Below are positions 31,524 through 57,903 of a stretch of DNA of 64,000 nt, in pieces (position 1 is the first letter of the stretch; each line of letters begins with the position of its first letter). The stretch is from a virus (lineage: Duplodnaviria > Heunggongvirae > Uroviricota > Caudoviricetes). The stretch lies in the IMG/VR virus record IMGVR_UViG_3300027994_000001, positions 57,776 through 121,775 of that record, one strand, 5' to 3'. A program made the position numbers and the translations under genes. The notes beneath the pieces were generated by a model, which saw only the letters and a list, made by a program, of their open reading frames with translations, was not told the DNA's origin and did not search any database.

Positions 31524-32465
31524 TTATTTCAAATTAACTAAAGTTCCATTTGCTCCCCCAACAACTGTATTTGAAAGTTTTCCATCCCAACGTTGAGCTT
31601 TCATGTACTCAATATAAATAGGAGATAGTTTCTTTTGTTTAATCTCTAAAGATAATGCTTCCGCCGAGGCTTTAATTACAACTGTTGCTGAATCTCCTTT
31701 TGCTATTGCTATCTTTCTTTGTGCATCTGCTGTTGCTGCCTTAGCTTGTGACTCAGAGGTAATTGCATCTTGAACGGCTTTTGCTTTGGCATTAATTGAA
31801 CTTACAATAGATCCAGGCGGTTGAATATTTGTTTTCAACTGAGAAATAAAAAACCATTTACCAACTCTTTTATTGGCTTCAACTACAATAGCCGCTTCAA
31901 ACTGCTGACGGTTGTTAAAAATATCATCTATTACAAACCTATTAGCTACATCATTAACTGCTCCTAGAATTGCTGTTTGTAACCATCCTTGTTCAATTGC
32001 TTCTAGACCACCTCTTTTAAATGTTGACCTTAGATTGGTAAACATATCCGCAGCGGCATGTTCTTTTACAGAATAATTAAATGTTGGATGAATATCGCAG
32101 GGAAAACCTCCCTTAGCAATAATAGTAGATTTAGGGTAAACAATGTTTCTTTGGTCTAAAGCAACTTCATGTAATTCCTGCGTATAAGAATTAAATAAAA
32201 CTAATCCTGATACTTCTTTAATAGCCGAAGCTCCACGAGTATCTCCAATTAGATTAACGGCTAATCCTTTGTAACCCGCTTCCACTTTCTTTAAAGAATA
32301 AGGTTGTAATAAAATAAGTAGAAGAAATACCACTGCTGCAACTACAGGTTTGTAGTGGAATTTTAGATTTCCATCTGGAAGAGTCTCTATTAAAGTTAAT
32401 TTTTTCTGAGCAAATAAAGCTCCAAATACTACTACGAAAATAATTAGTAAAATTGTTGTTACCAT
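31524..32465 (-). CDS. SPFH/band-7 (prohibitin/HflK-C-like) membrane protein
   Basis: N-terminal transmembrane helix followed by a band-7 core and a Lys/Ala-rich coiled-coil tail (AKAKAVQDAITSESQAKAATADAQRKIAIAKGD). Confidence 0.7.
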   Translation of the reverse strand: MVTTILLIIFVVVFGALFAQKKLTLIETLPDGNLKFHYKPVVAAVVFLLLILLQPYSLKKVEAGYKGLAVNLIGDTRGASAIKEVSGLVLFNSYTQELHEVALDQRNIVYPKSTIIAKGGFPCDIHPTFNYSVKEHAAADMFTNLRSTFKRGGLEAIEQGWLQTAILGAVNDVANRFVIDDIFNNRQQFEAAIVVEANKRVGKWFFISQLKTNIQPPGSIVSSINAKAKAVQDAITSESQAKAATADAQRKIAIAKGDSATVVIKASAEALSLEIKQKKLSPIYIEYMKAQRWDGKLSNTVVGGANGTLVNLK

Positions 32466-34434: not shown

Positions 34435-35199
34435 TTATTCTTTTCCTAATAATTGTTTAATTTTAATTTTTGTTTCCGCAGGGAAGTCCTTACCGAGCAT
34501 CCAGTTGGCAAATCCAGGATTATCAACTACTGAGAGGTTTACATCCTTTCCAAAGCCATACCTGATAATCCTATCTTTATCTACATACAGACTTCCGTTA
34601 AGATCAAATCTTCTTTGCTCTCCTTGTAAATATTCGTCTATATCTTTTATAGTTTCAATTGGTGTTTCAGATTGTTGAATTAACACAGGTAATAAAATAT
34701 CCGCAATTTCCTTTGTGGCTTTTATATCAAAGACAGCACCATGCGCTCCCTCTAATTCTTTTCCTGTCAGTCTTTTATAAACATCCGATAAAGTATTAGG
34801 AAATAGTTTTCTATATAATTTTAAAATATCATATAAATTAGGATTCCACGTAATTCCTTCCAAACCTGCACGCTCGAATTCTGCTGATAAAAGTGGTACA
34901 TCATATTTATCTGAATTGAATCCCGCTAGATCACACCCACCAAACCATTTTCTAATAGCTTGGGCGTATTGTTTAAATACAGGTAAATCTTTCACCATGT
35001 CATCTGTTATTCCATGAACTTCCGAAGCTTCAACAGGAATTGGTATTTCTGGATTTACCAAAATTGTTTTTTCCTCTTGTGTGCCATCAGGATTATACTT
35101 TATACATGCTAATTCAATGATTCTTGCTGTCTGTGTTTCTACAGACGTGCTTTCAATATCAAAAAATATAATAGGTTTTTCTAATTTCATAATCTCCAC
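34435..35199 (-). CDS. DnaQ-like (DEDDh) 3'-5' exonuclease
   Basis: Exo I FFDIESTS, Exo II AGFNSDKYDVPLL, Exo III AHGAVFDIKAT. Confidence 0.8.
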   Translation of the reverse strand: MEIMKLEKPIIFFDIESTSVETQTARIIELACIKYNPDGTQEEKTILVNPEIPIPVEASEVHGITDDMVKDLPVFKQYAQAIRKWFGGCDLAGFNSDKYDVPLLSAEFERAGLEGITWNPNLYDILKLYRKLFPNTLSDVYKRLTGKELEGAHGAVFDIKATKEIADILLPVLIQQSETPIETIKDIDEYLQGEQRRFDLNGSLYVDKDRIIRYGFGKDVNLSVVDNPGFANWMLGKDFPAETKIKIKQLLGKE

Positions 35200-35269: not shown

Positions 35270-35632
35270 TCATTTTTCCACAGAAGGCGAGCAGGAACGA
35301 AGGAATGACACGAGGTAAAAGAACACAGAGAACAAACGGAACTCGTCCATATAGAACCAAGTATAATATTTTCTTTCATTCGTGTTTTTAAAGTTTGGAA
35401 TCCACCCTTTATTGTAAAATGCAGCCAACATAGCTTCTTGTTCATAATATTTTACATGTAAAGGGATATTTTTATAGAGTTCATCAAAATCCTTTTCTGT
35501 GGTTTTATGGTACTCGAGTACTTTTTGGAAGCTATTATAAACCTCTCTAAATACAATTCTATCGAAAGTAGATCTTTCTTTATCTATTTCAAATCCTTTT
35601 GGAACTTCAATTTTCAATTCTTGTGTTTTCAT
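35270..35632 (-). CDS. small protein carrying a second, degenerate DGR variable-repeat copy at its C-terminus (candidate secondary or decayed target)
   Basis: C-terminal FRLFSVFFYLVSFLRSCSPSVEK is encoded by VR2. The pre-VR segment KYYTWFYMDEFRL is paralogous to KYFPWWYLGKNFRL in the primary target. Confidence 0.5.
   Translation of the reverse strand: MKTQELKIEVPKGFEIDKERSTFDRIVFREVYNSFQKVLEYHKTTEKDFDELYKNIPLHVKYYEQEAMLAAFYNKGWIPNFKNTNERKYYTWFYMDEFRLFSVFFYLVSFLRSCSPSVEK
35279..35341 (-). repeat. VR2: VR-like repeat diverged from the TR at adenines and carrying two 1-nt insertions
   Basis: Hand-aligned to TR 36662..36722: about 20 substitutions, all at coding-strand TR adenines, plus two single-base insertions. 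It shares the GC-enriched 3' block CTCGCC(T)TCTGTG with VR1. Confidence 0.6.
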
Positions 35633-36584
35633 TTTCGTATTTATTTACTAAGTTTTTACTATTACAGTGGACTAACCAACTCTTATGATTTTTCTTTACT
35701 TTATTTTTAATATATTTTTTCTTAATTGACTTTCTTATCAGAGTATGTGTATGATAATGTTTATATCCCAAAAAATCAATGCTCCGTGCACTTACTGGAA
35801 AAACTTGATAATTTCCTTTTATTTCCAACTTTAGTTGTGTTCTCAGATAGTCTTGGATATTATAAAACCACTCCCATAATTGTTCTTTATTATCTGAAAG
35901 TAAAACCATATCATCACAATATTTGAAATAATATTTTACTTTTAAAACCTCCTTAATCCAATGATCAAAATATGTCAGATAGAAATTTCCAAAAAATTGA
36001 CTTGTGAAATTACCTAATGGAACTCCACTGTGAGAATCTATAATATCGTCTAATAAATATAGCAAATCATTATCTTTAAACTTTCGCCGTAACATTCCTT
36101 TTAATATCTCATTATCTATGTTAGGGAAAAATTTCTTAATGTCTAGTTTAAGGCAGTATTTTGTCCCCTCTGTGTCTTTCAATACCTTTCTTAATTTATA
36201 AGAAGCTTGGTGCACACCTCTTCCCTTCACACAACTATATGTATCAGCGGTAAAAACAGATACAAAAATAGGCTCTAAAATATTTAGTATGGCGTGGTGT
36301 ACAATTCGATCAGGATAGTAAGGCAATTGTGATATTGTTCTTTCTTTTCCATCGGATATTGTAAATACATTATATCTAGACGTTGTAAATTTTTTATCAC
36401 TTAAAGTTTTGTGTAAATTTAAAATATTATCTTCTTCATTCTGTAAATGTTTTATTACTCCGTATTGTTTTAATTTCCCTCTTCTTGCTTTCTTATCTGC
36501 TGACTGTAAGTTTTCAATGTTGATTATTTGCTGGTATAAATTATTGTGTCTTTTCATGCTCTGTGTATATAAACTCACTTTCAA
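35607..36584 (-). CDS. diversity-generating retroelement reverse transcriptase
   Basis: RT motifs LDIKKFFPNID, GVPLGNFTSQFFGNFYL (the DGR-specific [I/L]GxxxSQ in place of the retroviral QGxxxSP), YFKYCDDMVLL (YxDD) and IDFLGYK. About 325 aa, adjacent to a TR/VR pair. Confidence 0.85.
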   Translation of the reverse strand: MKVSLYTQSMKRHNNLYQQIINIENLQSADKKARRGKLKQYGVIKHLQNEEDNILNLHKTLSDKKFTTSRYNVFTISDGKERTISQLPYYPDRIVHHAILNILEPIFVSVFTADTYSCVKGRGVHQASYKLRKVLKDTEGTKYCLKLDIKKFFPNIDNEILKGMLRRKFKDNDLLYLLDDIIDSHSGVPLGNFTSQFFGNFYLTYFDHWIKEVLKVKYYFKYCDDMVLLSDNKEQLWEWFYNIQDYLRTQLKLEIKGNYQVFPVSARSIDFLGYKHYHTHTLIRKSIKKKYIKNKVKKNHKSWLVHCNSKNLVNKYENENTRIEN

Positions 36585-36661
36585 TTACTTTACTAACGAG
36601 TCTTTAAGGCTTTTATTTATTTTTTACCGAGAGGTAAAGTGTTTTTACTTATTTTAAAATC

Positions 36662-36722
36662 TACAGATGTGAGTAGGAACGTTGGAATTATTCGAGTTAT
36701 AGTTCACATTGTTCAAACGGAA
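36662..36722 (-). repeat. DGR template repeat (TR), 61 bp, intergenic between target stop and RT start
   Basis: Coding-strand read TTCCGTTTGAACAATGTGAACTATAACTCGAATAATTCCAACGTTCCTACTCACATCTGTA is rich in AAC/AAT codons. It matches VR1 at 47 of 61 positions; every mismatch is at a TR adenine. Confidence 0.8.
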
Positions 36723-36740
36723 GGGGTAAAAACACTTGTT

Positions 36741-37304
36741 TTAATTCATATAATCTTTCCAAATATCTTTAAACTGAGATGCTGAGTAATTTCCTAATTC
36801 GGAAGATTTGACACAGAGGCGAGAAGGAACGCAGGAACAATCCGAGTAATAGTTCACAGCGCCCAAACGGAAATTCTTACCTAAATACCACCAAGGAAAA
36901 TACTTATATTCGCTGTGATTATCCCAATCAAGTTCAATCCCATTATTTAGAGCCTTAGAAATAACTACAAGTTCTTGGCAAGCTACTACTTTTCTTTCTA
37001 AATTTGGTGTGTTTTTTAACAGCCTTAATTGAAGAACTTCATTATCTATCTCTCCCAACTGTTTACATGCATCCTCAACTGTCTTTATATCCTCCCAAGT
37101 GTCACGTACATCAAAAATCTCTTTAACAATGGGTAACTGCTCCGCTGTACAAGCTGTAATCATCTCGTTAATTTGTTTTTCTGTGAATTTTATTTCCGCG
37201 GAAAATGGATCTTCTGAGCCGAAAGCTTTTATTTTCTTCTTCCAAGAATCACAGGCAATATCGTGTATCTGTTTTAACTCTTCTCTGGTTATACTATTTT
37301 TCAT
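36741..37304 (-). CDS. DGR target protein (187 aa) with variable repeat near its C-terminus
   Basis: VR1 encodes FRLGAVNYYSDCSCVPSRLC, against the TR-encoded FRLNNVNYNSNNSNVPTHIC. The ORF stop lies 19 nt upstream of the TR on the coding strand. Confidence 0.75.
   Translation of the reverse strand: MKNSITREELKQIHDIACDSWKKKIKAFGSEDPFSAEIKFTEKQINEMITACTAEQLPIVKEIFDVRDTWEDIKTVEDACKQLGEIDNEVLQLRLLKNTPNLERKVVACQELVVISKALNNGIELDWDNHSEYKYFPWWYLGKNFRLGAVNYYSDCSCVPSRLCVKSSELGNYSASQFKDIWKDYMN
36812..36872 (-). repeat. DGR variable repeat VR1
   Basis: Ungapped 61-bp alignment to the TR at an offset of +150. 14 mismatches at + coordinates 36812, 18, 20, 24, 32, 33, 38, 39, 42, 48, 59, 60, 62 and 63, all opposite TR T on the + strand (A on the coding strand). 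Confidence 0.8.
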
Positions 37305-37306
37305 AA

Positions 37307-38086
37307 TTATTTATTTAAAATCATTTCTTTAATATCCTGAACATGCTTACTTCCCCATTTTTGCAGAGCGTATCTAGCTTTGGCTTCAATAATTGAAATC
37401 AATGGAACAATTTTATAAGTAAAGCCTTTATACTCCAATAGTTCGTATTTCTGGTTAGGATCGATTCTTACATCAGCTTTAACGCCGTCAATATAGATGC
37501 TTTCATTATAGTCCGAACTTGAAAATCTATCTTCACCGCTTTCAATATCTAATCCATCAGCCTTAAGAATTTGGTAAAACGGTAGAATAAAATCATAATC
37601 CGCTTCTCCGTCTCTGAATCTTTCAAGTCTCACACCTTGTAAATATAAACTGATACTGCCACCTACTATAAGATTAGGATTGCTTTCCTGAAGAGTTTTT
37701 ACAGTTGATAAGTGCATAGCTTCGTCTAGTCTTTCAGATTCTTTGGCTTTTCTAATCTCTTTTAATTCTTTTTCGCCGATTTCTTCTAAAAATTTAATAC
37801 ATCTTGTGGTGTTTTTATGAGTGTCTTCTTTAAATTCACCTAAAATTTCTATTTTAAAAAATCTATTTGAACCATTATTACTGTAATGGTTAAACACTTC
37901 ATCAAGCTCATTCCAATAACTTATAGCTTTACTTGAATCTAATTCTAACTTAGATTTGATTACGTTATATCCTTCTGGTAATTCTTGCGTTTCTCCCTTA
38001 TCGTCAATGTAGTAAGTTTTACCTATTTCAAACTGCACTTTATTGAGCTGCATGTTATTATCTGTTCCTTTAAATCCTAATTTCAT
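37307..38086 (-). CDS. hypothetical protein (259 aa) immediately upstream of the DGR target
   Basis: Long minus-strand ORF with its stop 2 nt from the target's ATG; no recognisable motif. Confidence 0.45.
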   Translation of the reverse strand: MKLGFKGTDNNMQLNKVQFEIGKTYYIDDKGETQELPEGYNVIKSKLELDSSKAISYWNELDEVFNHYSNNGSNRFFKIEILGEFKEDTHKNTTRCIKFLEEIGEKELKEIRKAKESERLDEAMHLSTVKTLQESNPNLIVGGSISLYLQGVRLERFRDGEADYDFILPFYQILKADGLDIESGEDRFSSSDYNESIYIDGVKADVRIDPNQKYELLEYKGFTYKIVPLISIIEAKARYALQKWGSKHVQDIKEMILNK

Positions 38087-38285: not shown

Positions 38286-39209
38286 TTAAAAATTTCCATA
38301 TTCAACCTGAAAAACTTTCAATCCGAGTGCCCTAGCTCTTCTACAAACGGAATTTCTATCGTCTATTAAGGTAAGAATGTAGTTATTTTTCGCTATTTCT
38401 TCCCACAATTCCATTTTTACTATATCATCTGACCTAAAATCTCCTGATTTTCTCATATATAAGGTTATTTCAACATCTTCAAGATCTAATTCTAGATTAT
38501 CTCTTAACCATTTTTCTGTTTCTTCTCTACAACCCTCATCTCGACCCGAACAGAAAATTAATTCTGGCTGGTCTAAAGTCATATACAAATGTGCAAAAAG
38601 CTCTGCTACAGGAAAATCCAGTTTATCTTCTGAGACTTTTTTCCAGTCAAAAGGGCTTCTATTTCCCATATGTGCGAGTGTCCCATCAATGTCAAAAACG
38701 TAGCAAGCTGGTTTTTCTATGTCATTCTCAAATACAATAGGTTCAAAATCTTTTACAGGAATACCTTGTCTTTGCAGTTCCATATATTGATTGTGCTGTC
38801 TTTTTATTACTTCTGCTCCAACACTTCTGTTTCTTTTTGAATCTCTTTCTATTGCTTTTTCCGGCGAAATATCAAAATATTTGTAGCTTATTGGCACATT
38901 CCAATACTGAAACCTATCAAGGAACTCTTTCTTAAGGTGTGTGGCATCCACTAATACAGTTTTATTTTCTGCTAATCCTTCGTGAATTAAAACATCTTCA
39001 TACTTTGTTACCTGTTTTTCTAACTTAGAGATGTCTGGTCTGGAATAGTATTCTTTAATTGACTCTTCTGAGAAAGAAAACATCAATTCTCTGATTTTGT
39101 CCCGATTTACTACCAATACCCCTGTTGGATTTGCTCTCCATTGTTCGTGTGCATACGTCGATTTACCGCTGCCGGATATTCCCACTAAAACTTCTATCTT
39201 TTTACTCAT
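38286..39209 (-). CDS. pnk: polynucleotide 5'-kinase/3'-phosphatase (T4 Pnk-like)
   Basis: N-terminal P-loop GISGSGKST; C-terminal HAD phosphatase motif VFDIDGTLAH (DxDGT) and downstream acidic HAD blocks. Confidence 0.8.
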   Translation of the reverse strand: MSKKIEVLVGISGSGKSTYAHEQWRANPTGVLVVNRDKIRELMFSFSEESIKEYYSRPDISKLEKQVTKYEDVLIHEGLAENKTVLVDATHLKKEFLDRFQYWNVPISYKYFDISPEKAIERDSKRNRSVGAEVIKRQHNQYMELQRQGIPVKDFEPIVFENDIEKPACYVFDIDGTLAHMGNRSPFDWKKVSEDKLDFPVAELFAHLYMTLDQPELIFCSGRDEGCREETEKWLRDNLELDLEDVEITLYMRKSGDFRSDDIVKMELWEEIAKNNYILTLIDDRNSVCRRARALGLKVFQVEYGNF

Positions 39210-39879
39210 AATGAAATTGTCTTGTGTTATTTGCTTGAAGCATTATATTTAATAAATCATCATCTGTTTCTTGGATATAATAATTCTCCAATAAGTGATT
39301 CTGATACATGTCGGAGGCTTTTTGTCTTAGATAACCTTCCATTTCTATGCAATACTTTTTATCCTTTAAATTCAAAGCTATTTTCTGTATTTCTTCTTTT
39401 TTCGGCAAAATATTATCAATCAAACACTCCGCAATATAAAGGCTTCTATTAGCGTGAAATAATTTGTTTTTATTGTTATGTAGTTTTAAATCCCGTTTTG
39501 CAACTCCGCAATATGCTCGAATGAGCTTAAAAGTTCTGCATGTCTTCAAAACTTGCTCTCCAATCCTCTCATTTCCCCCAGTAAACAGTAAAATATCAGA
39601 ATGAATTGTACCATCACCACTCTTTAAATTAGCCCAAAACTGTTCTTCTGAAACCCAAATATATTGAGAGTTGTTTTCTAAGTCATCATATTGAAAACTA
39701 TGAATACTCGGTAAGCCGTTGACCTTTTCTTTAAAAACACTATCGTAATTATATACTCTCATATAATCATAGTCACTGTCTTCCTTGTTTGTACCGAAAA
39801 GCCTTGATCCAAATTCATATTCAATGTATCTGGATTTATTAAGCCGTTCGTGTTGTTCTTTTGTTATTTTTATGTTCAT
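39202..39879 (-). CDS. Pol-beta-superfamily nucleotidyltransferase-domain protein (paralog 1)
   Basis: FGSRLFGTNKEDSDYDYM fits the NTase signature hG[GS]x9-13Dh[DE]h. Confidence 0.5.
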   Translation of the reverse strand: MNIKITKEQHERLNKSRYIEYEFGSRLFGTNKEDSDYDYMRVYNYDSVFKEKVNGLPSIHSFQYDDLENNSQYIWVSEEQFWANLKSGDGTIHSDILLFTGGNERIGEQVLKTCRTFKLIRAYCGVAKRDLKLHNNKNKLFHANRSLYIAECLIDNILPKKEEIQKIALNLKDKKYCIEMEGYLRQKASDMYQNHLLENYYIQETDDDLLNIMLQANNTRQFHYE

Positions 39880-40541
39880 ATCAATAATTTTAGTTCCTCT
39901 AATAAGTCAGTGTTAAAACAGTTGTGTTTTTCAAGAATTTCTTTTATACTTCTTAACTTTTCTGTTTGTTTTTCTATCGGGTTTAGCTTTTTAAACTCCG
40001 TGGCCTTACTATTAAACAAAGTCCTATACTTATCATTTATTTTATCCCACAATTCTTGCCTGTCATGATAAGCTGATAATTTATATAAGTCTCTTAGCAG
40101 CCAATTCATATTTGAATAATCAAGTATCTTACCTTCTCTCATAATTTGAATTGCAAAATCTAATATCCTAATAGAATGAAATATAGATTTAAGTGCAATA
40201 TCTAAGTCATAATCTCCGATAACAATAAGTTTCTTTTTTCCTTTAACCCAACTATTTGATGTTAACATTGATATATTTCGTCTAAAGGATTCTTTATTTA
40301 TATCAACTGTTGGGAATTCCCACTTATAAACTTCAAAGGTACTCTTATCTGCAAAATAAACTTCTAAACAAGCAATATCTCCGTTTTTAACAGCCGTTAT
40401 AAAAGATTCTTTAGTAAAACAGTGAATATTTACATCTTCTATTTTTTCTAGTTCGTCTTGTATCACAATATAATCATGATCAGATTTTTCTGAATGGCTT
40501 CCGTACAGTCTACTACCAAATAAGCATTTGTTTAAAATCAT
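39876..40541 (-). CDS. Pol-beta-superfamily nucleotidyltransferase-domain protein (paralog 2)
   Basis: FGSRLYGSHSEKSDHDYIV is the same signature; similar length and a 4-nt overlap with paralog 1. Confidence 0.5.
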   Translation of the reverse strand: MILNKCLFGSRLYGSHSEKSDHDYIVIQDELEKIEDVNIHCFTKESFITAVKNGDIACLEVYFADKSTFEVYKWEFPTVDINKESFRRNISMLTSNSWVKGKKKLIVIGDYDLDIALKSIFHSIRILDFAIQIMREGKILDYSNMNWLLRDLYKLSAYHDRQELWDKINDKYRTLFNSKATEFKKLNPIEKQTEKLRSIKEILEKHNCFNTDLLEELKLLI

Positions 40542-41530
40542 AATCTTTCAAATTTAGGTTTAATAGCCTTCCAAATTACTTGGGAATAGTCTTTATCATT
40601 ATACATATTGAATAAAATTCCTGACAAAGAGTACTTTAAAGCATCTAAAGCAAACTGTTTTTTATCTGTTGTATTAATTATTTTAAATACATATTTATAT
40701 TGGGCTTCTATTAAAAGATACTCTGACCACAACTTTTCAACAAATTCATCGACTTTATTATAAAATTCATCTGGAACTCCTTCTAAAATACTCATGATAT
40801 CATCACCGTTCTTTAAACATTCCCAAACAGAGGTTGTAGATACAGCTGTCATAATTCTGTGCAATCTCAAATACTCGTCACCTTTTATTTTACATCTTTC
40901 TCCATTATAAAACCTTACAACATATCCTTCTTCTGTTTCTTTTATTTCTTTGTTTAATTCTTTTAGTGGCGTTTTTGAATCAAAATTTTTTACTTTGTTA
41001 GGAAAATGAACCTCTTCTAAACTTTTTTCCACACCGGACTCAGTTTCAAATACTCCTGTTAAAATAACTCCTTCAAACTCCCCATAATCACATACAATTC
41101 TGTTGTTTTTATAGATTATCTCAAAACAATATGTATACTCTTTACTGAATTCACTGTAATCAGAAATAGCTTCTAAAAATTCTCTACCTTTAAGAGCTTG
41201 ATCAGATGTAAATGAACCGCGGGAAGCAAAAACCCAAGAATCATCATAATAGAATAAAATACCTAATGAACCATCAAGCTTCTCGTAAATATCATATTTA
41301 TCACATATATTAGTCTTACCCTCTGATAGATTAAAAAACTTCTTGAAAGGCTTAGCTACTACATTTCCTTTATCATCTGTTACAAGTCCTCTGCACATCA
41401 TTATGATATCGTTCCACAAGCTTTCATATTGAACTTTATCTGAATAGTTCCATATAAGTAATGGGAGTGTTGGGTGCTTCTGTTTGAAAACTAAACCTTT
41501 TTTTTCGTATTTTAACAGTATGTCTAACAT
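40538..41530 (-). CDS. ATP-dependent RNA ligase, Rnl1-like
   Basis: Nucleotidyltransferase motif I KxDG present as YEKLDGSLGILFY, resembling T4 Rnl1 KEDGSL; about 330 aa, adjacent to the pnk block. Confidence 0.65.
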   Translation of the reverse strand: MLDILLKYEKKGLVFKQKHPTLPLLIWNYSDKVQYESLWNDIIMMCRGLVTDDKGNVVAKPFKKFFNLSEGKTNICDKYDIYEKLDGSLGILFYYDDSWVFASRGSFTSDQALKGREFLEAISDYSEFSKEYTYCFEIIYKNNRIVCDYGEFEGVILTGVFETESGVEKSLEEVHFPNKVKNFDSKTPLKELNKEIKETEEGYVVRFYNGERCKIKGDEYLRLHRIMTAVSTTSVWECLKNGDDIMSILEGVPDEFYNKVDEFVEKLWSEYLLIEAQYKYVFKIINTTDKKQFALDALKYSLSGILFNMYNDKDYSQVIWKAIKPKFERL

Positions 41531-57558: not shown

Positions 57559-57903
57559 TTATTTGTTTTCCGCGAATTCCTCATCAAACAACTCACTGTC
57601 ATCTCTATCGCACCAGCATCTTGAACAATACCACTCTCTTGAATAAGTATCTGCATCACATTCTGGGCAGTATTCTATGTTATCAATAGTGTTTACTTTG
57701 GTTATATCGTATTTCCAATGCGCGCAGATATCTTTTCTGTGAACGTCTCTTTCTCTTGGATATAAACTGCAAACAAATATAGTATCTTCGGAACTCCTGT
57801 CATTTTTATCTTCATAAAGAAATTTCCCATTATTATCATATACACTGAATGGTAGTTTTCTTTTTGCGTACTTACAAGAAGAACAGCTGACTTTTAATTC
57901 CAT
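57559..57903 (-). CDS. cysteine-rich zinc-ribbon protein
   Basis: Multiple CxxC pairs: CSSC, CPEC, CSRCWC. Confidence 0.4.
   Translation of the reverse strand: MELKVSCSSCKYAKRKLPFSVYDNNGKFLYEDKNDRSSEDTIFVCSLYPRERDVHRKDICAHWKYDITKVNTIDNIEYCPECDADTYSREWYCSRCWCDRDDSELFDEEFAENK

Follow-up and report, generated by a model that had tools for sequence, protein, structure and literature searches.

Introduction

In bacteriophage T4, the tRNA repair that counters PrrC relies on a kinase–HAD phosphatase, Pnkp (PseT), and an Rnl1-family ligase, RnlA, whose genes are dispersed in the genome. A further component of RNA repair is the nucleotidyltransferase (NTase) RlaP (PF10127, short for "RNA ligase-associating Pol-beta"), which was predicted by Burroughs & Aravind (2016) and takes its name from its association with RNA ligases. 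Here we describe a locus in a 64,000-nucleotide stretch of a Caudoviricetes virus record (IMGVR_UViG_3300027994_000001, positions 57,776 to 121,775; hereafter, the window), in which the genes for two adjacent NTases, designated NT-A (225 amino acids) and NT-B (221 amino acids), lie between those for an Rnl1-type ligase and a T4-type Pnkp.

The genes for RlaP are found beside those for RNA ligases and end-healing enzymes and are widespread in large phages. Among the repair NTases of jumbo phages, RlaP is reported to be the most prevalent, with a distribution that mirrors that of RNA ligases, and it has been predicted to restore nucleotides lost to nucleases such as RloC before ligation takes place (PMC7824862). 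No component of RNA-repair systems is less well understood than the RlaP-type NTases, and a single biochemical study, a preprint of December 2025, has addressed them (PMC12776372). The Pseudomonas enzymes it describes, PfRlaP and PaRlaP, add one or two nucleoside monophosphates or deoxynucleoside monophosphates to the 3′-OH of RNA, and not to that of DNA, with a preference for Mn2+; they show little specificity for the nucleoside triphosphate (NTP), and the means by which correct repair is reached is left open in that work (PMC12776372). In a mimic of cleaved tRNA, PfRlaP favors the 3′ end at the anticodon loop over the acceptor end. RlaP also extends the 3′ ends of free RNA strands in vitro, and a tRNA from which one anticodon-loop nucleotide is missing partly regains its aminoacylation through RlaP (PMC12776372). 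The crystal structure of PfRlaP consists of an N-terminal NTase domain and a C-terminal helical domain, which together form a cleft; the same study counts T4 NrdC.11 as an RlaP (PMC12776372).

A four-gene block with overlapping reading frames

The window has a G+C content of approximately 31%, and all of its open reading frames (ORFs) of at least 150 amino acids lie on the minus strand. Among these, rnl1, NT-B, NT-A, and pnkp follow one another in that order (Table 1), with start and stop codons overlapping at all three junctions: the ligase stop and NT-B start share the sequence ATGA, as do the stop of NT-B and the start of NT-A, and the end of NT-A overlaps the start of pnkp by 8 nucleotides (ATGAGTAA). 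Overlaps of this kind, at every junction of four genes, commonly point to co-transcription and translational coupling. A terminator scan found no terminator-like sites inside the block, and the matches returned by a promoter scan were no better than those in shuffled sequence. The outer genes have the hallmarks of a T4-type RNA-repair cassette, namely an Rnl1-family ligase with a KxDG motif and a bifunctional P-loop kinase/HAD phosphatase.

We interpret this block as a phage tRNA/RNA-repair operon in which the two NTases would extend the broken RNA 3′-OH before ligation, a reading to which we assign a probability of roughly 0.7. The initial annotation had recognized two adjacent ORFs with NTase signatures embedded in an RNA-repair block between pnk and an RNA ligase. 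The coordinates and minus-strand orientation of both ORFs are exact, the signatures (FGSRLFGTNKEDSDYD in NT-A and FGSRLYGSHSEKSDHD in NT-B) translate as quoted there, and the Rnl1-type ligase and Pnkp are confirmed as the flanking genes. It had further described the combination as one not present in T4, which is accurate for the adjacency but not for the component itself, since T4 has an RlaP in NrdC.11 (a member of PF10127 by Pfam match); the nrdC.11 gene is adjacent to neither pseT nor rnlA in the T4 genome.

Table 1. Position and supporting evidence of the RNA-repair genes, their catalytic residues, and neighboring features of the window
Feature	Position in window	Strand	Evidence
Rnl1-type (T4 RnlA-like) RNA ligase, 330 amino acids, first gene of block	40538..41530	−	PF09511 RNA_lig_T4_1 E = 5.5e-18; phrog_562 2e-67; TIGR02308 9e-20; KxDG motif 'EKLDGS' in translation
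NT-B, 221 amino acids, Pol-beta-fold NTase with C-terminal helical domain, large RlaP-like sister family	39876..40541	−	phrog_388 1e-8; family profiles; AlphaFold (AF2) model
NT-B catalytic motif FGSRLYGSHSEKSDHD (hG[GS] ... DxD; G9, S10, D21, D23)	40473..40520	−	translation; invariant residues
NT-B E60, putative third metal-binding carboxylate	40362..40364	−	invariance; codon confirmed; aligned to D of 'ALD' in T4 NrdC.11
NT-A, 225 amino acids, divergent RlaP-family (PF10127-like) NTase with C-terminal helical domain	39202..39879	−	family PF10127 matches; hhalign; AF2 model
NT-A catalytic motif FGSRLFGTNKEDSDYD (G24, S25, D36, D38)	39766..39813	−	translation; all four residues invariant across 40 family members
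NT-A D95, putative third metal-binding carboxylate	39595..39597	−	invariance; codon confirmed; at most 1 column from NT-B E60 in hhalign
T4-type polynucleotide kinase-phosphatase (Pnkp), 307 amino acids, last gene of block	38286..39209	−	PF25109 HAD_PNKP 1.3e-39; PF13671 AAA_33 1.9e-16; phrog_505 3.5e-78; P-loop GISGSGKST and HAD motif DIDGT in translation
ORF259, 259 amino acids, just downstream of pnkp	37307..38086	−	N-terminal DUF7666 4.8e-11; phrog_33731 (unknown function)
ORF187, target protein of diversity-generating retroelement (DGR), 187 amino acids	36741..37304	−	contains variable repeat
DGR variable repeat (VR), inside 3′ end of ORF187	36813-36872	−	encodes residues ~145-164 of the 187-amino-acid target protein
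DGR template repeat (TR), 60 nucleotides, between reverse transcriptase and ORF187	36663-36722	−	repeat pair, 78% identity
DGR reverse transcriptase (RT)	35607..36584	−	PF00078 1.5e-16; phrog_1423 1e-108
ORF120, downstream of RT	35270..35632		same PHROG (11581) as DGR target
RNase T/DEDD-type 3′-5′ exonuclease	34435-35199	−	PF00929 3.6e-22; phrog_192 'DNA polymerase exonuclease subunit'
SPFH/Band-7 protein, ~6 kb from repair block	31524-32465	−	PF01145 1.5e-12

Catalytic residues and predicted fold

Like NT-B, NT-A matches phrog_388 (E = 5e-6), which is annotated as "nucleotidyltransferase". Full-length homologs number 73 for NT-A and 90 for NT-B. In the NT-A family alignment (A1, 40 members), G24, S25, D36, D38, and D95 are invariant, and the same is true of G9, S10, D21, D23, and E60 in both alignments of the NT-B family (A2, 49 members, and the broader A4, 58 members). 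The Pol-beta catalytic set—hG[GS], [DE]x[DE], and a third carboxylate—is present in both proteins, with the third residue placed by alignment. In its second half, NT-B also carries a basic motif (K100, K102–K104, K118, S119, H122, and R125).

AF2 models built on the family alignments are confident, with predicted local distance difference test (pLDDT) values of 91 for NT-A and 96 for NT-B. In each model the N-terminal domain is beta/alpha and the domain after it is all-helical, which fits the description of the PfRlaP crystal. The top Foldseek matches of both models are Pol-beta-fold NTases, and the BFVD matches of the NT-A model are phage "nucleotidyltransferases". When NT-A, NT-B, and the two family profiles were searched against PDB sequences, only generic NTase motif matches (MNT, TUTase, HalB, and AadA) were returned, all at E ≥ 0.004. 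The alignments and the predicted structures place NT-A and NT-B, well above chance level, among the Pol-beta-fold NTases and show that both retain the acidic triad; neither an unrelated fold nor a loss of the triad was found, the fold being that of the Foldseek matches and the triad being invariant within each family.

The NT-B of the window begins 7 residues before its FGS motif, and some 10–20 N-terminal residues that most relatives possess are absent. An in-frame N-terminal extension is impossible, because the start codon used is the first to follow a stop, and the ORF overlaps the stop of the ligase gene.

Relationship of NT-A and NT-B to each other and to RlaP

The initial annotation termed the two NTases tandem paralogs. 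Homology at the profile level is borne out: hhalign of the two families gives a probability of 97.6% (E = 2.8e-12) for an alignment that spans 113 columns, extends into the helical domain, and has approximately 26% identity. The implication of a recent duplication is not, given this level of identity and a BLASTP comparison of NT-A with NT-B in which the 20-residue motif alone is aligned (E = 1e-5). From these comparisons, NT-A and NT-B are read as anciently diverged homologs belonging to two families, and not as the products of a recent tandem duplication.

The two families differ in their proximity to RlaP. Counting matches at E ≤ 0.01 or 0.001, PF10127 is matched by 16 of the 40 NT-A family members (best E = 1.2e-7), whereas NT-B relatives mostly match PF01909 (43/49) and PF18765 (42/49), and PF10127 in only 4 of 49 cases (7 of 58 in the broader set); the NT-B of the window itself, as a single sequence, has a Pfam match to PF18765 at E = 0.012. 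Profile comparison by hhalign with the RlaP of locus L035, which passes the PF10127 threshold with 43.3 bits, gives 99.6% and E = 1.3e-23 over 181 columns for the NT-A family, and 94% and E = 1.4e-7 over 125 columns for the NT-B family. The NT-B family also aligns with T4 NrdC.11 (95.2%, E = 2.4e-8, 69 columns), and this alignment takes in the position of the third acid, where the "LE" of NT-B stands opposite the "LD" of NrdC.11. Homology over both domains to proteins that pass the PF10127 threshold is thus clear at the profile level for NT-A, and has weaker support for NT-B.

On this sequence evidence, NT-A is treated here as a divergent RlaP. For NT-B, the best description is membership of a sister family of RlaP that shares its predicted two-domain plan. 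This is a large family: at E ≤ 1e-3, an exhaustive profile search recovered 2086 cluster representatives, and the number at E ≤ 1e-30 was 485. No Pfam model is dedicated to the helical domain of this family (WVKGKKK ... KS.FHS.R).

Conservation of the gene neighborhood

To describe the genomic context of the two families, 89 loci were collected (L001–L089), of which 84 were covered by a census drawing on viral, metagenomic, and assembly collections and on phage genome records. The census queries were the two family profiles together with the Rnl1 and Pnkp of the window; the single-sequence criterion for the latter is strict and misses other ligase types. Direct neighbors of the 56 distinct NT-A genes were counted where a flank of at least 600 nucleotides was present (41 genes upstream, 46 downstream). 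Rnl1 lies directly upstream of NT-A in 7/41 cases and NT-B in 5/41; directly downstream, Pnkp is found in 10/46 and NT-B in 3/46. The commonest recognizable layout is Rnl1, NT-A, Pnkp, and an Rnl1 or Pnkp homolog occurs within 5 kb in 17 of 28 well-flanked loci. The genomic context that characterizes RlaP, with an RNA ligase or end-healing enzymes as neighbors, is therefore found in the window and recurs in its relatives.

An adjacent pair of NT-A and NT-B genes is present in nine distinct contigs (L004, L005, L019, L033, L034, L035, L047, L059, and the window) and is seen in both gene orders. Rnl1/Pnkp machinery accompanies the pair in the window, L035, and L059. A different set of repair genes is found in L033 (5992-10827 of a 267-kb contig), where NT-B and an NT-A-like gene are followed, as consecutive separate genes, by Hen1_N, PNKP_ligase, an AAA_33 kinase, and Metallophos; L034 (5995-10191 of a 176-kb contig) has the same series without Metallophos. 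In these two loci, the bacterial Pnkp/Hen1 repair system is found in a split form carried by phages and headed by the NTase pair. The window shares the pair with them, but has Rnl1 and a T4-type Pnkp in place of the Hen1 methyltransferase system. In rough neighbor-joining trees of both families, paired members are interspersed among unpaired ones, which suggests repeated gain or loss of the pairing and not a single inherited arrangement. All catalytic residues are kept by both NT-A and NT-B in every paired locus inspected.

One of these neighborhoods is an RNA-repair island of approximately 8 kb in a 134-kb viral contig (L005, 4176-12650). Along its length are encoded a protein with a weak RNA_ligase match and a T4 gp30.3-like protein, then NT-A and NT-B, a P-loop kinase, a canonical RlaP (69.9 bits for PF10127), and, lastly, a CCA-adding enzyme of class II and a metallophosphatase. 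Four different Pol-beta-type NTases are thereby present in one locus, and their coexistence indicates that NT-A and NT-B are no simple substitutes for either the canonical RlaP or the CCA-adding enzyme.

Solitary NT-B genes occur in more varied surroundings. In the Bacillus phages PBC2 and PJN02, NT-B is accompanied by genes for a protease, an RNA ligase, and a polynucleotide kinase/ATPase. Elsewhere it adjoins genes for a tRNA_bind-domain protein and Thg1 (L030, 5863-7986), or for an R2K-clade ATP-grasp protein (L015, 5959-10237, where a CCA-adding enzyme is encoded 2.3 kb away, and L016, 5926-8185); in Vibrio phage 2.275.O, an NT-B relative is located 1 kb from a tRNA cluster. In the surroundings of NT-B in Xanthomonas phage XacN1, only NAD-salvage genes were identified and RNA-repair genes were not; those in Bacillus phage G were uninformative, and still other NT-B loci have nothing recognizable in their vicinity. 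A megablast search of phage genomes with the 5-kb block of the window gave no match. At the protein level, the closest isolate is Tenacibaculum phage pT24, with 42% identity in NT-A.

Proposed role of the two nucleotidyltransferases

The proposed pathway would begin with the cleavage of tRNA by a host anticodon nuclease or other ribotoxin, some of which (such as those of the RloC type) also remove one or two nucleotides. Pnkp would convert the broken ends into a 5′-phosphate and a 3′-OH. NT-A and NT-B, using NTP and two metal ions bound at the acidic triad, would then add one or a few nucleotides, untemplated, to the 3′-OH of the broken RNA, and Rnl1 would seal the break. Established here are the identities of the genes, the fold and acidic triad of the NTases, their RlaP homology, and their conserved association with RNA-repair genes; the 3′-end addition is attributed to NT-A and NT-B by homology to PfRlaP and PaRlaP, and the order of the steps is likewise a proposal. 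The general idea that these enzymes might add nucleotides to damaged RNA ends, already put forward in the initial annotation, agrees with the biochemistry of the RlaP family (PMC12776372).

The locus resembles described RlaP systems in the predicted architecture of its NTases—a Pol-beta NTase domain at the N terminus with hG[GS], DxD, and a third carboxylate, followed by a C-terminal helical domain—and in the association of their genes with those for an RNA ligase and an end-healing enzyme. It differs in that described systems carry one such NTase, whereas the window has two adjacent ones that recur as a pair; in that the characterized enzymes come from bacterial RtcB–RtcA operons and not from an Rnl1–Pnkp phage cassette; and in the divergence of its NTases, both of which fall below the Pfam cut-off and one of which, NT-B, belongs to a separate large family. 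With the T4 system it shares the core of a kinase–HAD phosphatase Pnkp and an Rnl1-family ligase, but the T4 genes are dispersed, with the RlaP homolog NrdC.11 encoded elsewhere, whereas the window unites the ligase, two NTases, and Pnkp in one overlapping block.

Several observations weigh against the interpretation of the block as a tRNA/RNA-repair operon with RlaP-type NTases. Searches of the window detected neither tRNA genes nor Rfam families. The window proteins' own PF10127 scores, at 15.5 bits for NT-A (E = 0.014) and 13.5 bits for NT-B (E = 0.058), are both under the Pfam gathering cut-off of 23 bits. The relation of NT-B to RlaP consists of profile comparisons at 94–97% probability, and most NT-B relatives match generic NTase-domain models only. 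An NT-A partner is absent from 16 of 25 NT-B loci, several of which show no recognizable repair gene within 6 kb. The characterized RlaPs, as proteins of Pseudomonas RtcB operons, are distant from NT-A and NT-B. Finally, no RlaP structure emerged from PDB searches in which a Pfam-verified RlaP and T4 NrdC.11 served as queries, and the best solved-structure matches of the two models are HalB and ANT(4′), with low TM-scores of 0.36–0.46.

It is reasonable to ask why a single cassette would encode two such enzymes. Our preferred guess is that NT-A and NT-B have different nucleotide or substrate specificities, or that they form a complex, because the pair recurs, because its catalytic residues are all kept, and because one phage encodes the pair in addition to a canonical RlaP and a CCA-adding enzyme. 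A more specific version, in which NT-A and NT-B would make up an obligate "gap-filling" unit, of two enzymes or as a heteromer, with a distinct nucleotide or position specificity in each and the two together restoring the 1–2 nucleotides excised by "smart" anticodon nucleases of the RloC or PaOrf2 type, is speculative, and we regard it as an outside chance. If true, such a unit would address the problem posed by a single RlaP, which, in adding any NTP, would yield mostly wrong products; NT-B would then be a second RNA-repair NTase family.

The initial annotation held that a duplicated NTase pair in this setting is not a standard described module. This is too broad as regards the setting: a place beside an RNA ligase or Pnkp is the defining context of RlaP, for which it was named in 2016. 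It holds for the pair itself, which recurs in other phages and for which we found no description in the RlaP literature, the 2016 survey, its data, and the supplements of the jumbo-phage paper lying outside this coverage. The linkage of the NT-B family to RNA repair was likewise without a description in that literature, again excluding the 2016 survey and its data. With the one-NTase version already known, the recurring two-enzyme pair appears to be a modest new variation, and the locus is otherwise an ordinary example of a known phage counter-defense module, the RNA-repair cassette with RlaP-type NTases. The recurrence of a diverged pair beside unrelated ligase systems nevertheless offers a testable lead on specialization or cooperation among repair NTases, and the NT-B family, with more than 2000 sequence clusters annotated just generically as "nucleotidyltransferase", appears to be linked to RNA repair.

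Alternative functions

Structure and profile comparisons with CCA-adding enzymes, CD-NTases, MNT antitoxins, and aminoglycoside NTases, all suggested in the initial annotation, point to membership of NT-A and NT-B in none of these groups. The "CCA-adding-like" activity that it favored, with one or both enzymes rebuilding a damaged CCA end of tRNA instead of repairing an anticodon-loop break, is in keeping with the location of NT-B relatives near tRNA gene clusters and, in L015, near a CCA-adding enzyme, as well as with the in vitro extension of free RNA strands by RlaP (PMC12776372). The proteins themselves argue otherwise: neither PF01743 (PolyA_pol) nor PF12627 is matched by the window proteins in Pfam, the family members yield one marginal match only (tRNA_NucTran2_2, E = 0.0098, in 1 of 49 NT-B relatives), and NT-A and NT-B, at 221–225 amino acids, are without the neck, body, and tail tRNA-binding domains of CCA enzymes, which have approximately 370 amino acids or more. 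Further, a bona fide CCA-adding enzyme is encoded by a separate gene beside the pair in L005, and by a separate gene in L015 as well; PfRlaP prefers the anticodon-loop 3′ end to the acceptor end (PMC12776372); and the tight coupling to Pnkp and the ligase points to break repair. We therefore consider CCA-end repair improbable. It is somewhat harder still to credit that one of the two serves a non-catalytic or regulatory role, or is a protein adenylyltransferase of the MNT type with a protein, and not RNA, as its substrate. Overlapping genes that stay adjacent often encode proteins that form a complex, the window's NT-B is short at its N terminus as described above, and there are weak matches to the MntA antitoxin (E = 0.0096 and 0.11). 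Set against this, the two proteins retain every invariant catalytic residue, as do their counterparts in the other paired loci, which makes a dead partner unlikely; the MntA scores of 15.8 and 12.4 bits compare with an NCBIfam cut-off of 60 and cover the shared NTase motif only; the MNT antitoxins of type VII toxin–antitoxin systems are minimal NTases of approximately 100–140 amino acids, to which NT-A and NT-B add a helical domain of some 120 amino acids; and no HEPN or other toxin neighbor was found in the window.

The structural matches raise two further possibilities. Among solved structures, both models match HalB, the NTase of the Hailong defense system, best (Foldseek E = 1e-3 and 2e-4); HalB makes poly-dA and is similar in size to NT-A and NT-B, with an NTase domain and a helical bundle, and NT-B matches the NCBIfam HalB model at E = 2.9e-4. 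The pair could on these grounds be imagined as an anti-defense synthase, either making a HalB-like oligodeoxyadenylate that keeps the Hailong HalA channel closed or acting as a CD-NTase-like signal maker or decoy, much as the initial annotation had proposed with its second-messenger alternative. We find this very improbable. The NCBIfam match (NF051895) scores 20.5 bits, where the cut-off is 190, and extends over residues 7–59 only, that is, the generic NTase motif; the TM-scores to HalB are 0.36–0.46, and ANT(4′) is nearly equal, which reflects a shared two-domain NTase architecture and not family membership. There is no HalA-like membrane protein adjacent in the window, PADLOC returned nothing for NT-A and PDC-S09 at E = 0.016 only for NT-B, and SMODS or CD-NTase Pfam matches were absent from the window proteins and the family members alike. 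A synthase would, in addition, not explain why these genes are repeatedly linked to those for ligase, Pnkp, Hen1, and Thg1. A small-molecule NTase of the antibiotic type, resembling the kanamycin or lincosamide enzymes, is barely conceivable: ANT(4′)/KNTase, AadA, and LinB are among the structural matches, but at low TM-scores (0.26–0.38), the NCBIfam resistance models are not matched, and the setting is one of phage early genes with RNA-repair neighbors, without a resistance-gene context. Taking HalB and ANT(4′)/kanamycin NTase together, TM-scores of 0.3–0.46 and identities of 10–18% separate them from NT-A and NT-B, for which RNA 3′-end extension within a repair operon remains our preferred reading.

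Other features of the window

Directly downstream of the repair block is a DGR (35607-37304, minus strand). Its TR and VR differ at 13 positions, each of which is an adenine on the coding strand of the intergenic template copy, and the stretch LGNFTSQFFGNFYL of the RT is presumably of the DGR type.

ORF259, which lies between pnkp and the DGR, was considered as a third NTase on account of the pattern "GGSISLYLQG...R...DYDF" in its C-terminal half, which resembles a minimal NTase motif, and was rejected: its hhalign probability to the NT-B family is 1.4%, and it has no PDB sequence match. Its only other occurrence found was in the same phage (L083).

Burroughs and Aravind are said to have proposed SPFH/Band-7 modules, a member of which is encoded in the window, as scaffolds of some RNA-repair systems with tRNA-like RNA. 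The exonuclease of the window has homologs in L008 (7775-8542) and L082 (5503-6258). In L008 and L062 the gene order is Rnl1, NT-A, Pnkp, Exo, with the exonuclease directly after Pnkp, and L008 is without NT-B; in the window, ORF259 and the DGR separate Pnkp from the exonuclease.

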